A DNA stretch of 64,000 nt from Escherichia coli (GCF_022846255.1 NZ_AP025682.1); one strand, 5' to 3'; numbered from the stretch's first letter, positions 5,686-51,346 are shown. Notes: generated from the letters alone by a model not told the origin. Program-made: numbers and translations.

Positions 5686-5708
5686 CAGGAATGGATTCCT
5701 GTCTTTTT
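5686..5708 (+). terminator. Intrinsic terminator after ykgH
   Basis: CAGGAAT-GG-ATTCCTG hairpin followed by TCTTTTT. Confidence 0.5.
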
Positions 5709-5857
5709 AACTGTAAATATCCTGGCATTATTAATGTCAGGATATTTACAGAAGAGCAGCATAACCATGACGGAACGGGGTTAAGTCAGGTTGTCCTTAA
5801 CGTTATTCACAACCTCGTATACCGCCTTCAGGTTTATGTCCAGACTACATATCTCTC

Positions 5858-6553
5858 TCAGCAATCCTCAATAATCAGATACACCGCTTTCACCGGACCA
5901 TGAACCCCGACGACTTTGATAAGCTCAATGTCCGCCGTTGAACTGGGACCACTGATGATGTTAATACATGACGGCATTCGTTCACCGGCCTGCGCTTTCT
6001 GATGCAATTTTTCTGCGAGTTGCGCTACACGCGGCAGGATTGTGCTTTTACGCAGGATAAAAAGAGAAGATTCCGGGAGCAGGCTCAATGAACGCCCGCG
6101 CCCGGCGGCGGAAAAAAGAACCACGCCTCCCGATTCGGTTAAACCATATTCAGCATATACGACGCCCACTTTAGCCTGCTCTGCTTGTGATATGTTCTCA
6201 ATACCTTTCGCCGGATCCCAAACAACGGCATTGCATTCCTGCTGCAAACGTTCGCTAATCCCCAATTCCTCCAGCCTCGTGTCACCACTAATCACGACCG
6301 ACTGATCTCCCAGCTCTTTACACAGACGTATTGCAGCTTCTGCCGCCTTCGCCTCGCTGGTCAGTTCACAGCGCGTCAACATAACATCGCTGGCAAACTG
6401 GATAAACGCGTCACAGCGCTGCTGTTGGGTAAGTTGGGTAAGCCGCTCGTTAGCATAGTTGTTAAGCGGCGCATCTTCTGCTTGCGGTTCAAGTCGCAGC
6501 GGGCGACCCAGTGCCTGAGCAACGTTATTCAAAAATTCGCTCCGATTATCCAT
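5858..6553 (-). CDS. ykgG: LutC-like protein YkgG (LUD domain)
   Basis: 231 aa from internal ATG (MDNRSEFLNNVAQALG...) with AGGAG SD; start overlaps ykgF stop (ATGGATAA). Confidence 0.8.
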   Translation of the reverse strand: MDNRSEFLNNVAQALGRPLRLEPQAEDAPLNNYANERLTQLTQQQRCDAFIQFASDVMLTRCELTSEAKAAEAAIRLCKELGDQSVVISGDTRLEELGISERLQQECNAVVWDPAKGIENISQAEQAKVGVVYAEYGLTESGGVVLFSAAGRGRSLSLLPESSLFILRKSTILPRVAQLAEKLHQKAQAGERMPSCINIISGPSSTADIELIKVVGVHGPVKAVYLIIEDC

Positions 6554-45282: not shown

Positions 45283-45897
45283 TTATCCTTCGATAAAAGC
45301 CATCCCTGTGAACGTTCGTCGCGGGTTGCCACGTTCAATCTGGTGATGGAACATTCGCCGCTGCGATTTCAGCGCCGCGCTATTTTCCTGTTGCTGTTGT
45401 TCCAGCTTCCAGGCAATCAGTAATCGCGCCAGCCGCTTGTTAGCATGCTGACTGCGCTCTGACTGAACCTTCACGCTAATACCGGATGCCAGATGCGTGG
45501 CGCGTACCGCCGAGTCGGTTTTATTGACATGTTGACCGCCCGGCCCCGACGAACGCAGCGTCTCATAACGGATCGCGTCGGATTGTTCCTGCTCATCAGC
45601 GGTAAAACGCCCAATGCCCAGAAACCAGTTTTTGCGCCCATGATGAGGCCGATACGGACTCGGACAAATCCACTGGATAGTGCCACACCAGCTTTCGCTT
45701 AGAGCCCATGCGTTATCGCCATCCAGAGAAATCAGCGCCGAACGCAGTGTGTCAGAGTAGCGACCCGTTTCTGTTTCCAGCACCGTTACCGCGACGTCCT
45801 GTCGGGTAGCTTCTTTAATCAGCCTGTCCAGTGCTTTTCTCACTGCGAGACAACATTCTTCCGGCCCCTGAGCAGAGGAGAGTTGTAGCAAGATCAT
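45283..45897 (-). CDS. prfH: Peptide chain release factor homolog PrfH (RF-H)
   Basis: 204 aa from [14 protein letters not shown]...; RF domain with [13 protein letters not shown]; ATG overlaps rtcB stop (ATGA). Confidence 0.85.
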
Positions 45898-47045
45898 CCT
45901 TTTTTCCCTCCACTGTTTTTGAGCGTCAGCACCGGGCGCAGTCGCGCGACAGGAATAATTAACCCAGCCAGCACCAGACATTGCACCACGCTTTCAGCCG
46001 ATTTATAGGCTTGTGGCGCTTCTTCAAAGATGAGTTGTTTATCGCGACAAATTACCCGACTGCCAAGTTCAGTCCGCGAGAGTTGCGTCGCCGTGTATTT
46101 CGCTGCCAGACGCCCTTTACACTCGGTGCGCCCCCATTTACGCCCCGCCCCATGCGCCAGCGAGTGGAGCGTTTTTTCGTTCGCAACAGGTTTAACCAGC
46201 CAGGAGTAATCGCCGCGTGAACCGGGAATAATCACCAGACCGTTGTCATCCGGCGTGGCGCCTTTACGATGCAACCAGCCCTGTTGATCGCCGATTTGGC
46301 ACGCGCTAACAAAGTTATGCGCCACATCCAGAACCGGACTTCCGGTGGCCTTAACTTGTTGCATTATGCGCAAAGCGATCAGCTGGCGATTAATACGCGC
46401 AAACGCCAGCGCATCGTCATGTTCCGCAATATACCGTAGCGCGTCGTCACTGCCTTCAGGCAAACCATGATGCGAAAACGAGGCAATATGCCGCTGTAAA
46501 ATAGACTGCCCCAATCCCCTCGAGCCGCTATGAACCAGCAGTTGCAGATGCTGCGCATCCAGACCAGCCAGTGCAAACAGTTCCGCGTCGATAATTTGAT
46601 CAATCTGTTGCAGTTCTGCGAAGTGGTTACCGCCACCGATGGAGCCAAGCGAGTTGTGCCACGGATGCTGTGCAAATGCTGACGGCAGGTTTTCCTCCAG
46701 CCAGCTTTCTTCAGCAACGTCATCCAGATCTGATAATCGCTTTTCAAACTTATCGGCGTTGTATTTGCGAGCGAGAATATCTGTTTGCCATAGCGCCATG
46801 CCGCAGCCGATATCATTGCCGACCAGTGCCGGGTAAAAACGGCCTACGGAGAAGAACGCTGCGCCAATCGGGTAGCCGCGTCCGGGATGTAAATCTGGCA
46901 TCCCCACAACGCGCTGCATGTTGGGTAAATTTGCCGTGGTGTGTAATTGTTGGATCGCTAAACTCTCGATCCACAGGTCATCAGATGCGATGGTAAATAC
47001 CGCATCGGATAAGGGACGAATATATTTGCCCATGTACCATTCCAT
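45894..47045 (-). CDS. RtcB-family RNA ligase paralog coupled to prfH
   Basis: 383 aa; RtcB metal-binding motifs (...GGNHFAELQ..., ...HGAGR...); translationally coupled upstream of prfH. Confidence 0.85.
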
Positions 47046-47222
47046 TTATGAATAAAAATCAGGAAATGGCAGACGAATCCAGGGCAAGAAAAAAGAATTA
47101 ATCCTGGAAAGGTCTGCAAAGAGTCATTGATAAAGGATTTGTCATGATTTACCTCCTTGCAGTTTGTGGAATAAGAAAACGCGCACATACTAGACGGGCG
47201 TTATTTTCATTGCAAGCTGGAT

Positions 47223-47675
47223 TTAATGTTGCGGTTTATATCGCATATAAAAATTAGTAAACCACGTTCCCCGGCATTCAACGCGCTGCTGCTTAACTGT
47301 CTGAAAACCATAACGTTCAAAAAAGGGTTTTGCGGTTATGCTGGCGTCCACCGTAAGTTCGGATTCAGACTTAATCAATGGTTTTAACAAAGCGCTGGCA
47401 ACTCCGCGTCGGGTGTATTCCGGTTCAACAAATAACATATCGATATAATGTCCAATGCGGGTAATAAAACCAACCGGTTGTGCATTAATAACTGCAACCC
47501 GCACTTGTGATTTCGCGAGTTTCTCCTTCCAGCGAGATTCGTCAATCTGCGCCCAGGCGGCAATTTGCTGTGGAGAATAGTGCTGACTCGCCGTCATCGT
47601 AACAGCTCGAAGGAAAATAGCGCATAGTTGCTGAAAATCACCAGGCTGATAGTTTCTTATTTGTATGTTATTCAT
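47223..47675 (-). CDS. yafP: GNAT-family N-acetyltransferase YafP
   Basis: 150 aa; last gene of dinB-yafN-yafO-yafP. Confidence 0.85.
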   Translation of the reverse strand: MNNIQIRNYQPGDFQQLCAIFLRAVTMTASQHYSPQQIAAWAQIDESRWKEKLAKSQVRVAVINAQPVGFITRIGHYIDMLFVEPEYTRRGVASALLKPLIKSESELTVDASITAKPFFERYGFQTVKQQRVECRGTWFTNFYMRYKPQH

Positions 47676-47684
47676 AATATAAAT

Positions 47685-48083
47685 TCAAAAACGCATGCGA
47701 AACGCTTCTGCCATTTTCCCAATTTTATGCATTTGGTTGTTATCTCGAGCCAGTTTATGAGGTTCAGGTTTCAGAATGGCAATGAGCAACCATGCTTGCT
47801 CATCAAACGCACCCTGACAATATACCAAATGCGCTGCGTCATTCGTTCTGCTGAATTGGCGCAACTGTGGCGGAAATGGATTATTCACATTTGCCAGATG
47901 AATATGAGCAACTCGCTCAAATTTGATTAATGGCCAGGTAAACGAGTCGTCGTAGAGTGCATCGCGACCAAATATATCTGGCAAAACACCGTCACGCTTA
48001 TAGGAAATAAAATCCGCCGTTAACGCATCAAGTTCCTCTGCTGTAAGTTGCAGGCGAATAAGTTTTGTTTTGAATACCCGCAT
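47685..48083 (-). CDS. yafO: Ribosome-dependent mRNA interferase toxin YafO
   Basis: 132 aa, immediately downstream of yafN. Confidence 0.85.
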   Translation of the reverse strand: MRVFKTKLIRLQLTAEELDALTADFISYKRDGVLPDIFGRDALYDDSFTWPLIKFERVAHIHLANVNNPFPPQLRQFSRTNDAAHLVYCQGAFDEQAWLLIAILKPEPHKLARDNNQMHKIGKMAEAFRMRF

Positions 48084-48085
48084 CC

Positions 48086-48379
48086 TTATTCCTTAAAGTC
48101 ATTGAAATCATCATCCGTCATATCATTAAGATATTGTTCAGCGCGGCGTGTAATTTCCTCTAATCTTGCGGCACTCGGACGGAAGCGCGCCTTAACCAGT
48201 TTTTTCTCCTCTTGTTCAGCAAGCATGTCCATTAACGCTTCAAATGCGCTGGCACTTAAGAGATATCCTGCGGGGCGATTATTAGAAAGAACCGCAACCG
48301 GTTGATCAATAAAGTATTTAGCTGGGTTTTTACGTAACTCAGTGATATTGACCGATTTTTCAGCGAGAATTCGATGCAT
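48086..48379 (-). CDS. yafN: Antitoxin YafN (Phd/YefM fold)
   Basis: 97 aa, MHRILAEKSVNITELRKNPAKYF... Confidence 0.85.
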   Translation of the reverse strand: MHRILAEKSVNITELRKNPAKYFIDQPVAVLSNNRPAGYLLSASAFEALMDMLAEQEEKKLVKARFRPSAARLEEITRRAEQYLNDMTDDDFNDFKE

Positions 48380-48430
48380 ACAGTGATCCCCTCATAATAA
48401 TGCACATCAGAATATACATAATAGTATACA

Positions 48431-49486
48431 TCATAATCCCAGCACCAGTTGTCTTTCCATTTGAGGGTCAAGTAACGTCACATGCAGCCCCACCAGACGC
48501 ACACCGCGCCCGCCACGGCGTTCATCCCAGGTTTTACGCGCGGTGGCGATTAAGTCAGCTTTATTCAGCCGCGGCCAGACGTGCTCCTGAGTGGTTTGCT
48601 GAAAATCATCAAACTTTAATTTCACCCCCTGGCGAGCAATCAGTAAATCAGGTTTTACCTTTGCCAGACGGCGTTCAAGTTCAGGATACAGCCGCTCGAT
48701 AATCGCTTCACATTCAGACCAGTGATGAATATCTTCCGCCATCGTGCGTTCCACGCCGACGGATTTTCGCAACCGTTCACTGTTAACGTCGCGCTCGTCA
48801 ATCCCCTGACTACGCTCCCACAAAATGCGGCCAAATTTGCCAAAACGTTTGAGCAGAGTCACCAGATCACACTTTTGCACATCACCGCAGGTCCGCAGCC
48901 CCATCGCTTCCAGTTTTGCCGCCGAGACTTTGCCGACGCCGGGAATTTTTGCCAGCGGTAAGGTTTGCAGAAATGCCGGAACTTCTGCCGGCGTAATCAC
49001 AAACTGGCCGTTGGGTTTATTCATGTCGGAGGCGATTTTGGCGAGAAACTTGACCGGCGCAACGCCCGCAGACGCCGTCAGTTGCAGCTCGTTGAAGATC
49101 GTCTGGCGGATTTCCTGGGCGATGAGGGTCGCAGAACCGTGGCAATGGACGCTATCGGTGACATCGAGATAGGCTTCATCCAGTGATAACGGTTCAATGC
49201 GCGAGGTATAGCGCGAGAAAATTTCGCGGATATGATTTGAGGCTTCTTTGTAGGCGTCAAAGCGCCCTGGAAGCAAGGTGAGATGCGGGCATAATTTGAG
49301 CGCCATCCCTGTCGGCATAGCGCTACGTACGCCAAATTTACGCGCGGGATAATTGGCGGTGCTGATTACCCCCCGTCGTTCGCGGCTGCCGCCAATAGCA
49401 ATAGGGATATCGCGCAGGGCGGGATTGTCGCGCATCTCCACCGCTGCGAAAAAGCAGTCCATATCCACATGAATGATTTTACGCAT
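48431..49486 (-). CDS. dinB: DNA polymerase IV
   Basis: 351 aa, [33 protein letters not shown]... (Y-family polymerase). Confidence 0.95.
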
Positions 49487-49502
49487 TGCTCACCTCTCAA
49501 CA

Positions 49503-49518
49503 CTGGTAAAGTATACAG
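49503..49518 (-). promoter_or_regulatory. LexA (SOS) box upstream of dinB
   Basis: Minus strand reads CTGTATACTTTACCAG (CTGT-N8-ACAG class), 17 bp upstream of dinB ATG. Confidence 0.75.
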
Positions 49519-49556
49519 TGATTTCAGGGTTTGAGAAATGCGTAAAGATTCAGCAT

Positions 49557-50480
49557 TTAACGCGTTCGCTGCGAAAGCACCTGCTGCTTATCCAGCTTTT
49601 GCACCAGCGGCTGCACCACTTTATCCCCATGCTGACCAAAGTATTGATACAGCGTATCGGACGCGCTTTTAGTCAGCACCATAATCTCAATGCGCCGGTT
49701 GCCCGCGCTTTGCGGATTTTTCGCGTCCAGCAGCATCTGGTCCGCCATTGCGCTCACCTGCATCACTTTATCTTCCGGCATTCCTGCCTCTTCCAGCACC
49801 CGACGAGCCGAAAGCGCGCGGTCACCCGAAAGGTTCCAGTTGTTGTAGATATTGTTTTTGTAGGCCATCGCATCGGTATGCCCGGTAATAATAATTTTGT
49901 TATCGAGCGAGTCGAACACTGGCGCGAGCTCCACCAGCAGCGTTTTAAAGAACGGCATAATCTGCGCGCTGCCGCGTTCGAACATATTGCGATTCTGGTC
50001 GTCTTTAATCAGCACGCGTAATCCCTGCGGGACAATCTCCATCTCCAGATTCGCTTCCATATGCGCATCACGGGCAATGGTGTTGATGCTGGTTGCCAGC
50101 TCACCAAGCTCGGTGGCGGATTTCTTCTTCAGCAGCGCCGTTTTCTCGTTGACGTCGCGCGCTTTTTTCTCCGTCTCTTCCGGCACCGCCACGGTGGCAG
50201 GTTTTGACGGATGAGACGGGCTGATTTTATTTAACGGCGACAGCCCACCACCGTTAAAAATCGACTGCCCGTGCAGCGCGGCGATAATGCTTTCACGCTC
50301 GGATTTACTGACGCTATTGACAATCCACAGCGTCATAAATAGCGCCATCATCGCCAGGGTAAAGTCGGCGAACGCTACCTTCCACGCCCCGCCGTGGTGC
50401 CCGGCATGATTCTTTTTGATCTGCCGCCGGACGATGGTGGTTTTTGCCCCACGCTCGCGGCGGTTGCCCGTCTTTCTCAT
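49557..50480 (-). CDS. lafU: Lateral-flagellar stator protein, MotB-like
   Basis: 307 aa from MRKTGNRRERG...; TM segment then C-terminal OmpA-like peptidoglycan-binding domain. Confidence 0.85.
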   Translation of the reverse strand: MRKTGNRRERGAKTTIVRRQIKKNHAGHHGGAWKVAFADFTLAMMALFMTLWIVNSVSKSERESIIAALHGQSIFNGGGLSPLNKISPSHPSKPATVAVPEETEKKARDVNEKTALLKKKSATELGELATSINTIARDAHMEANLEMEIVPQGLRVLIKDDQNRNMFERGSAQIMPFFKTLLVELAPVFDSLDNKIIITGHTDAMAYKNNIYNNWNLSGDRALSARRVLEEAGMPEDKVMQVSAMADQMLLDAKNPQSAGNRRIEIMVLTKSASDTLYQYFGQHGDKVVQPLVQKLDKQQVLSQRTR

Positions 50481-50482
50481 GC

Positions 50483-51346
50483 TTATTCTTGCTCCAGCAT
50501 CGCATTCACCCATGCATCGAGGTTGGCGAAGGTCGGTTTGGACGCCAGATGCAGCAGCTTACGCCCGGCGTCCACCGCCAGCAGCGTCGGTTTGCCGCCC
50601 GCCTGGGCCACCAGCACGGTACGCACACACTCCAGCAGCGAATGTTCCGCCCGCGCCTGCTGTTCCATGGCGTTGGCGAGCGGGTCCATCAGGCAGTAGC
50701 AAATAAACACGCCTAAAAATGTCCCCACCAGCGCTGCCGCCACTTTCAGGCCAATCAGGGCGATAGAACCGTCAATTGACTGCATGGTGATGATGATGCC
50801 CAGCACTGCCGCGCAAATACCAAATCCCGGCATCGCTTCGGCGGTCCGTTGCAGCGAGCGTGACGGCGTTAACAGCGACTCTTCAGCGGTGTCCAGCTCC
50901 TGATCGAGAATGCCTTCCAGTTCATGGGCGTCGATTTTACCCATCGCCATCAGGCGAAAGTTATCGGCAATAAAAGTCACCAGCCGCTTCTGGGTTAACA
51001 CCAGCGGGTATTTCTGGAAAACGGTACTCTCTTCCGGCTGCTCAATATGCTGATCCAACATCCGCAGACCGCCGTTTTGTACCATTTCAAGCAACTCATA
51101 CAGGCACATTAATAGCTGGCGCTGAAACTCCGGCCCGAGCTGTTTTTTACTGATCACGCCTTTAATTTGATGGGCAATCTCTTTCAGCACATGTTTCGGG
51201 TTCCCAATAATCATCGCCCCGAAACCCGCACCCAAAATAATGATCATTTCCGCCGGTTGCCAGATAGCCACTAATTGGCCGCCCGCTTCAAAATAACCGC
51301 CAAATACGCAGCCGAGCACCACCAGTAAACCTAATATTTTTTGCAT
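50483..51346 (-). CDS. lafT: Lateral-flagellar stator protein, MotA-like
   Basis: 287 aa, four TM segments, MotA/TolQ/ExbB family. Confidence 0.85.
   Translation of the reverse strand: MQKILGLLVVLGCVFGGYFEAGGQLVAIWQPAEMIIILGAGFGAMIIGNPKHVLKEIAHQIKGVISKKQLGPEFQRQLLMCLYELLEMVQNGGLRMLDQHIEQPEESTVFQKYPLVLTQKRLVTFIADNFRLMAMGKIDAHELEGILDQELDTAEESLLTPSRSLQRTAEAMPGFGICAAVLGIIITMQSIDGSIALIGLKVAAALVGTFLGVFICYCLMDPLANAMEQQARAEHSLLECVRTVLVAQAGGKPTLLAVDAGRKLLHLASKPTFANLDAWVNAMLEQE

Follow-up and report, generated by a model that had tools for sequence, protein, structure and literature searches.

A Four-Gene dinB-yafN-yafO-yafP Operon and Its LexA Box at the Border of the Flag-2 Cluster in Escherichia coli

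Results and Discussion

Gene Content of the Locus

The window, which is the whole 64,000-nucleotide stretch of Escherichia coli DNA that was analyzed, was subjected to ORF calling. Four consecutive open reading frames, all full length and all on the minus strand, were found to fill the interval from 47223 to 49518 exactly. The yafP stop codon ends at position 47223 and a LexA box begins at position 49518 on that strand, and the limits given for this locus in the original prediction, which was made from the sequence alone, are therefore exact. The genes were named by using the NCBIfam equivalog models with their curated cutoffs, with Pfam domains as support, and all four proteins pass these cutoffs by a wide margin (Table 1). 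The genes yafN and yafO lie between dinB and yafP on the same strand, with short gaps of 51 nt (dinB-yafN), 2 nt (yafN-yafO), and 9 nt (yafO-yafP). The locus is almost certainly an intact dinB-yafN-yafO-yafP operon of E. coli in its four-gene form. The presence of this operon had been predicted, and the family models, the RefSeq annotation, and the alignment to K-12 all agree with that prediction; a standard annotation comparison returned the same four names in the RefSeq genomes of E. coli.

Table 1. Positions of the Genes and Other Features Found at the Locus and in Its Flanks
Feature	Position in the window	Strand	Basis
lafU, longest ORF, 318 aa (stop codon at 49557)	49557-50513	minus	NF005273, 579 bits vs cutoff of 383
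lafU-dinB spacer, 70 nt, with promoter-like site, LexA box, and RBS	49487..49556	minus	identical to K-12
promoter-like PdinB	49510..49537	minus	consensus scan, 9/12 matches
-35-like hexamer TTCTCA	49537..49532	minus	consensus scan
-10-like hexamer TATACT	49515..49510	minus	consensus scan
LexA (SOS) box CTGTATACTTTACCAG, 20-mer form CACTGTATACTTTACCAGTG	49503..49518	minus	exact match, PWM, K-12 identity
ribosome-binding site GAGAGG	about 49498..49493	minus	
dinB, DNA polymerase IV, 351 aa	48431..49486	minus	NF002677, 547 bits vs cutoff of 256
ATTATGA direct repeat, first copy	48429-48435	minus	
dinB-yafN spacer, 51 nt, site of the yafNO promoter mapped in K-12	48380..48430	minus	2 substitutions vs K-12
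yafN, Phd/YefM-type antitoxin, 97 aa	48086..48379	minus	NF007300, 194 bits vs cutoff of 99
yafO, ribosome-dependent mRNA interferase toxin, 132 aa	47685..48083	minus	NF007377, 245 bits vs cutoff of 153
ATTATGA direct repeat, second copy	47673-47679	minus	
yafP, GNAT N-acetyltransferase, 150 aa	47223..47675	minus	NF007338, 326 bits vs cutoff of 146
weak hairpin (AACGC...GCGUU) followed by UUUCUUAUU	47169..47202	minus	MFE fold
15-codon ORF MTNPLSMTLCRPFQD with its Shine-Dalgarno sequence	47098-47158 (ORF, 47145..47098)	minus	
RtcB-family RNA ligase gene and prfH (peptide chain release factor H), both intact	45283-47045	minus	

The DinB protein contains the Pfam domains IMS (PF00817), IMS_HHH (PF11798), and IMS_C (PF11799), and also PF21999. 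It matches the solved structures of E. coli Pol IV (PDB 4IR1, E 4e-236), and its C-terminal 110 residues match PDB entry 1UNN, which is named "DNA polymerase IV" and which we take to be the complex of the little finger with the beta-clamp. The residues D8, F13, Y79, D103, and E104 are retained at the K-12 positions, as is the C-terminal QLVLGL. In Pol IV, D8, D103, and E104 are the catalytic acidic residues, F13 is the steric gate, and QLVLGL is the beta-clamp motif.

YafN was matched to PF02604 (PhdYeFM_antitox) with 32.6 bits versus 29.8, and YafO was matched to PF13957 (YafO_toxin). A sequence search of the PDB returned no solved structure for YafO. YafP belongs to PF13673 (Acetyltransf_10) and matches the GNAT structure 2FIW with an E value of 2e-17. 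The gene for the antitoxin is directly upstream of the gene for the toxin, both with family-level matches, and the embedded YafN/YafO toxin-antitoxin pair that had been predicted is borne out by the equivalog models, the Pfam domains, and the 2-nt gap. By analogy with K-12, YafO is expected to be toxic, YafN is expected to neutralize it, and the pair would have an autoregulated promoter.

LexA Box and Promoter of dinB

The strand of the operon was left unstated in the original prediction, yet the LexA box was quoted there in the minus-strand orientation, which is the orientation of Table 1. There are 16 nt between the box and the ATG of dinB and the last base of the box is at -17, so that its earlier placement "17 bp upstream" of dinB is acceptable. 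The box had also been called canonical. This description holds for the core, which is CTG-N10-CAG with an AT-rich center, but it is loose for the remainder because CCAG stands in place of ACAG in the right half and the box matches the perfect palindrome TACTG(TA)5CAGTA at 13 of 20 positions.

The 16-mer CTGTATACTTTACCAG is unique in the window and is contained in none of 100 shuffles. The looser pattern CTGT-N9-CAG has nine matches in the window, which include the dinB box. A symmetric position weight matrix (PWM) for LexA was constructed from 16 K-12 boxes printed in PMC3009722, with the dinB box excluded. The dinB box was found to be the best of the nine matches and the highest scoring site anywhere in the window (16.08 bits), near the lower end of the range of the training boxes (15.5-26.1 bits). 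When the 64-kb window was shuffled 300 times, a score of at least 16.08 bits was reached in 30 cases. The dinB box is an authentic LexA box from the weak end of the range, whose motif score by itself does not reach significance across 64 kb. Its significance comes instead from its position within the 70-nt spacer, from its overlap with the -10-like hexamer, and from its identity to the dinB box of K-12.

These same observations bear on the rival reading in which the 16-mer matches by chance and dinB lies outside the control of LexA in this strain. The frequency of equally high scores in shuffled windows and the incomplete fit to the palindrome would be compatible with chance. However, the box lies in the 70-nt spacer immediately upstream of dinB, where it overlaps with the -10-like hexamer, and it is base-for-base identical in the alignment to the K-12 dinB box, which is printed among the LexA boxes of the UV-induced genes (PMC3009722). 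In addition, a 76-nt query that covers the lafU-dinB spacer was matched with at least 95% identity in 5411 of 5426 complete E. coli genomes. A chance match is extremely improbable, and we retain the assignment of the site as the LexA box of dinB. With the same 76-nt query, 2022 records were found at an identity of at least 99%. Strains such as R12 vary at the first base of the 20-mer CACTGTATACTTTACCAGTG, and for this reason a search with the 20-mer matched only two genomes of Escherichia sp.

The putative -35 and -10 hexamers of PdinB are separated by a 16-nt spacer and were assigned on the strength of the 9/12 match to the consensus. The TATACT hexamer lies inside the LexA box, and upstream of dinB no other promoter-like site is well placed. 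Given the identity of the box to the K-12 site, it would be expected to bind LexA and to permit derepression of dinB after DNA damage.

Regions Flanking the Operon

Upstream of dinB are lafU, a motA-like gene, a gene for a FliA-family sigma factor, and more Flag-2 genes that continue to the end of the window. The locus had been described as marking the boundary with Flag-2, and this description is correct, with lafU and further lateral-flagellar genes directly upstream of dinB. The longest ORF for lafU has its start 31 nt inside the motA-like gene that precedes it. The true start of lafU is probably an internal ATG near 50480, since the match to the family model begins at residue 22 and a 307-aa product is annotated in E. 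coli SMS-3-5. Neither the terminator scan nor folding identified a terminator-like site in the lafU-dinB spacer (49487-49556), and transcription from lafT-lafU could therefore enter the LexA-bound dinB promoter in strains with an intact Flag-2 cluster.

Downstream of yafP, the genes for the RtcB-family RNA ligase and PrfH are intact and share the strand of the dinB operon. They encode the RtcB2-PrfH pair, which has been described as acting in the rescue and repair of ribosomes (PMC9223846, PMC9304027). The spacer between yafP and rtcB contains a 15-codon ORF that is preceded by the consensus Shine-Dalgarno sequence AAGGAGGT. The 62-nt unit of this ORF is 100% identical in six sequences, namely the window, K-12, STEC299, R12, SMS-3-5, and Escherichia sp. 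E1V33, and in the last of these the flanks of the ORF are only about 95% identical. The ORF is unannotated in the RefSeq records examined and has no match in Rfam, and the 15-aa peptide was not found in the literature searched.

The arrangement on this side raises the question of where the SOS transcript ends. In an alternative to a unit that ends with yafP, the transcript from PdinB would read through into rtcB and prfH (47045..45283), and the ribosome-repair pair would be partly inducible by DNA damage. The genes are on the same strand with a yafP-rtcB spacer of about 180-190 nt, and a consensus scan found no sigma-70-like promoter match on the minus strand between yafP and rtcB, although the scan is a crude consensus filter that would miss a weak or non-sigma-70 promoter. 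After yafP, nothing resembles a terminator except the weak hairpin with its U-tract (Table 1), which was missed by the terminator scan and which lies in a region whose fold z-score is not significant; however, the hairpin with UUUCUUAUU may terminate transcription well enough. The RtcB2-PrfH paper is silent on the native regulation of the pair. K-12 is uninformative here, because its counterparts of the two genes, ykfJ and prfH, are pseudogenes and an extra repeat-like insertion is present. The longer transcript is unlikely, and the unit is taken here to end with yafP.

The flanking spacers, without a convincing terminator, would allow transcriptional coupling of the operon with its neighbors but do not demonstrate it. 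A coupling with RtcB2-PrfH is considered because no clear terminator follows yafP and because the 15-codon ORF is perfectly conserved. More broadly, the dinB operon might not be an isolated SOS unit in those strains where both flanks are intact. RtcB2-PrfH could be fed by, or co-regulated with, the SOS transcript that carries yafO, or transcription of the lateral-flagellar motor genes could run into dinB, where bound LexA would act as a roadblock. We regard this wider proposal as quite unlikely.

The similarity to other strains is not uniform along this region. Over 45600-50325, the prfH-rtcB-yafP side is 99.7% identical to R12 and dinB-lafU is 97.5% identical, and STEC299 is 98.9% identical across the whole segment. 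Among the complete E. coli genomes, the identity is at most 98.6% over the operon, at most 97.5% over the 22-kb context, and at most 98.8% over the neighboring core genes. This pattern points to recombination breakpoints close to the yafNO segment or to a lineage not represented in the collection. We read it as what may be an ordinary recombinational mosaic within E. coli and not as the mark of a separate species.

Proposed Regulation of the Operon

The regulation that is proposed for this locus follows from its orthology to the operon of K-12. A LexA dimer on the box would cover the -10 hexamer of PdinB and keep transcription low. Upon DNA damage, self-cleavage of LexA, stimulated by RecA, would free PdinB, and one transcript would then span all four genes. 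This SOS transcript would provide Pol IV for translesion synthesis, the antitoxin YafN along with the ribosome-dependent mRNA interferase YafO, and the acetyltransferase YafP for the modification of nitroaromatic genotoxins. The yafNO genes would also be transcribed from their own promoter in the dinB-yafN spacer, which would be repressed by YafN. During translation or amino acid stress, degradation of YafN by Lon would derepress this second promoter.

For K-12, yafNO has been reported to have two promoters, namely PdinB, which is under SOS control, and one just upstream of yafN that is autoregulated by YafN and depends on Lon, and the induction of yafNO by mitomycin C is lost when PdinB is deleted (PMC2814082). 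YafO was characterized in the same report as a translation-dependent mRNA interferase. All of dinB, yafN, yafO, and yafP are co-induced after ciprofloxacin (PMC11002266), and YafP, which has a functional link to Pol IV, influences how toxic and how mutagenic nitroaromatic compounds are (PMC3105422). The description of the operon in the original prediction as SOS-controlled can be kept for PdinB with its K-12-identical box. For yafNO it would capture only part of the regulation, given the YafN-autoregulated promoter in K-12.

A second, "putative" LexA box has been proposed at the yafNO promoter (PMC2814082). This candidate was rejected, because the PWM gives nothing above -1.2 bits in 48350-48470. 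The absence of a LexA-like site from this interval agrees with the report that the proximal promoter is unresponsive to mitomycin C (PMC2814082). No match to Rfam at E <=1 was found in 46900-49700, and the three spacers do not fold more stably than shuffled sequences.

Comparison with K-12 and Other Forms of the Operon

A 2.5-kb query matched 5416 of 5426 complete E. coli genomes, with the annotations dinB, yafN, yafO, yafP, and lafU. The coverage of the query is at least 80% in 2832 of the 5416 matching genomes; the lower-ranked among the matches listed have a coverage of 70% and are without yafNO. Two forms of the operon are common, the four-gene form and a dinB-yafP fusion without yafNO, the latter in about half of the complete E. 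coli genomes. This dimorphism has been reported previously, with 60% versus 40% of the sequenced strains and with an ATGA overlap of dinB and yafP in the fused form, and the four-gene form was considered to be ancestral (PMC3105422). The two-gene form of CFT073 and R12 has the same LexA box core, dinB, and yafP as the window, and the YafP of R12 is identical to that of the window; it lacks yafNO and has the dinB/yafP overlap by ATGA (PMC3105422), whereas the window has the four-gene form. In the window, the yafNO pair is bracketed by a 7-nt direct repeat, ATTATGA (Table 1), and R12 keeps exactly one copy. The repeat extends the ATGA microhomology reported in PMC3105422.

In two genomes, yafO has decayed. 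In SMS-3-5, which is Flag-2-positive, the annotation has yafO frameshifted (positions 5687-6086 of the extracted locus, L006), whereas the yafO of the window is intact. In Escherichia sp. E1V33, a deletion of about 375 bp (about 1700-1770 of L005) takes nearly all of yafO and leaves an orphan yafN antitoxin gene beside yafP. The decay of yafO with yafN being kept is a third form of the operon besides the published four-gene and two-gene forms.

These losses invite the reading that yafNO in the window is a decaying, nonfunctional remnant and that only dinB and yafP matter. Beyond the frameshift in SMS-3-5, the deletion in E1V33, and the absence of yafNO from about half of the E. coli genomes (PMC3105422), the window YafO contains the substitution E83A, which is found in neither K-12 nor STEC299. 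An exact 45-nt yafO pattern spanning E83A has no match among the GTDB species representatives. Against this, the yafN and yafO ORFs are full length, with start codons, stop codons, and spacing as in K-12, and both proteins score far above their equivalog cutoffs. It is very unlikely that the pair is a remnant, and the four-gene operon is regarded as intact. The other YafO substitution relative to K-12, E66V, and both YafN substitutions are also present in STEC299.

The operon of K-12 MG1655 (b0231-b0234) contains the same four genes in the same order, with the same lengths and the same gaps of 51, 2, and 9 nt between them. At the DNA level the two operons are 96.8-96.9% identical, and the 70-nt promoter spacer, the LexA box included, shows no difference. 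Relative to K-12, the proteins differ by one residue in DinB (M210T), by two in YafN (P61L and I62V, which make it identical to the YafN of STEC299), by two in YafO (E66V and E83A), and by eight in YafP. The locus is already known and ordinary, as had been stated at the outset; it is near-identical to a K-12 operon with a documented box and documented SOS induction, and it does not change what is known of SOS regulation, Pol IV, or YafNO. Its value is only that of an annotation landmark, by which the strand is set and the Flag-2 cluster is delimited from the rtcB-prfH/pepD side.

The flanks also differ from those of K-12. In K-12, lafU, lfhA, ykfJ, and prfH are pseudogenes, whereas the window counterparts (lafU, the adjacent Flag-2 genes, rtcB, and prfH) are intact. 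An lfhA-lafU deletion scar takes the place of the Flag-2 cluster in both K-12 and STEC299. Between its yafP and ykfJ, K-12 also has an insertion of about 145 nt that the window, STEC299, and R12 lack and that presumably resembles an ERIC/IRU repeat. The insertion is located at about 6320-6465 of the K-12 locus (L002), corresponding to about 47050 of the window, and E1V33 seems to carry a similar one. In SMS-3-5, the order prfH-rtcB-yafP-yafO-yafN-dinB-lafU-motA-like and onward is the same as in the window over 22 kb at an identity of about 97.4%, and the 22-kb segment aligns to lafU, motA, the FliA-family sigma factor gene, fliL, fliK, fliS, fliD, lafA, flgL, flgK, and onward. The strain analyzed here carries the ancestral four-gene form of the operon with its neighbors intact on both sides, unlike K-12.
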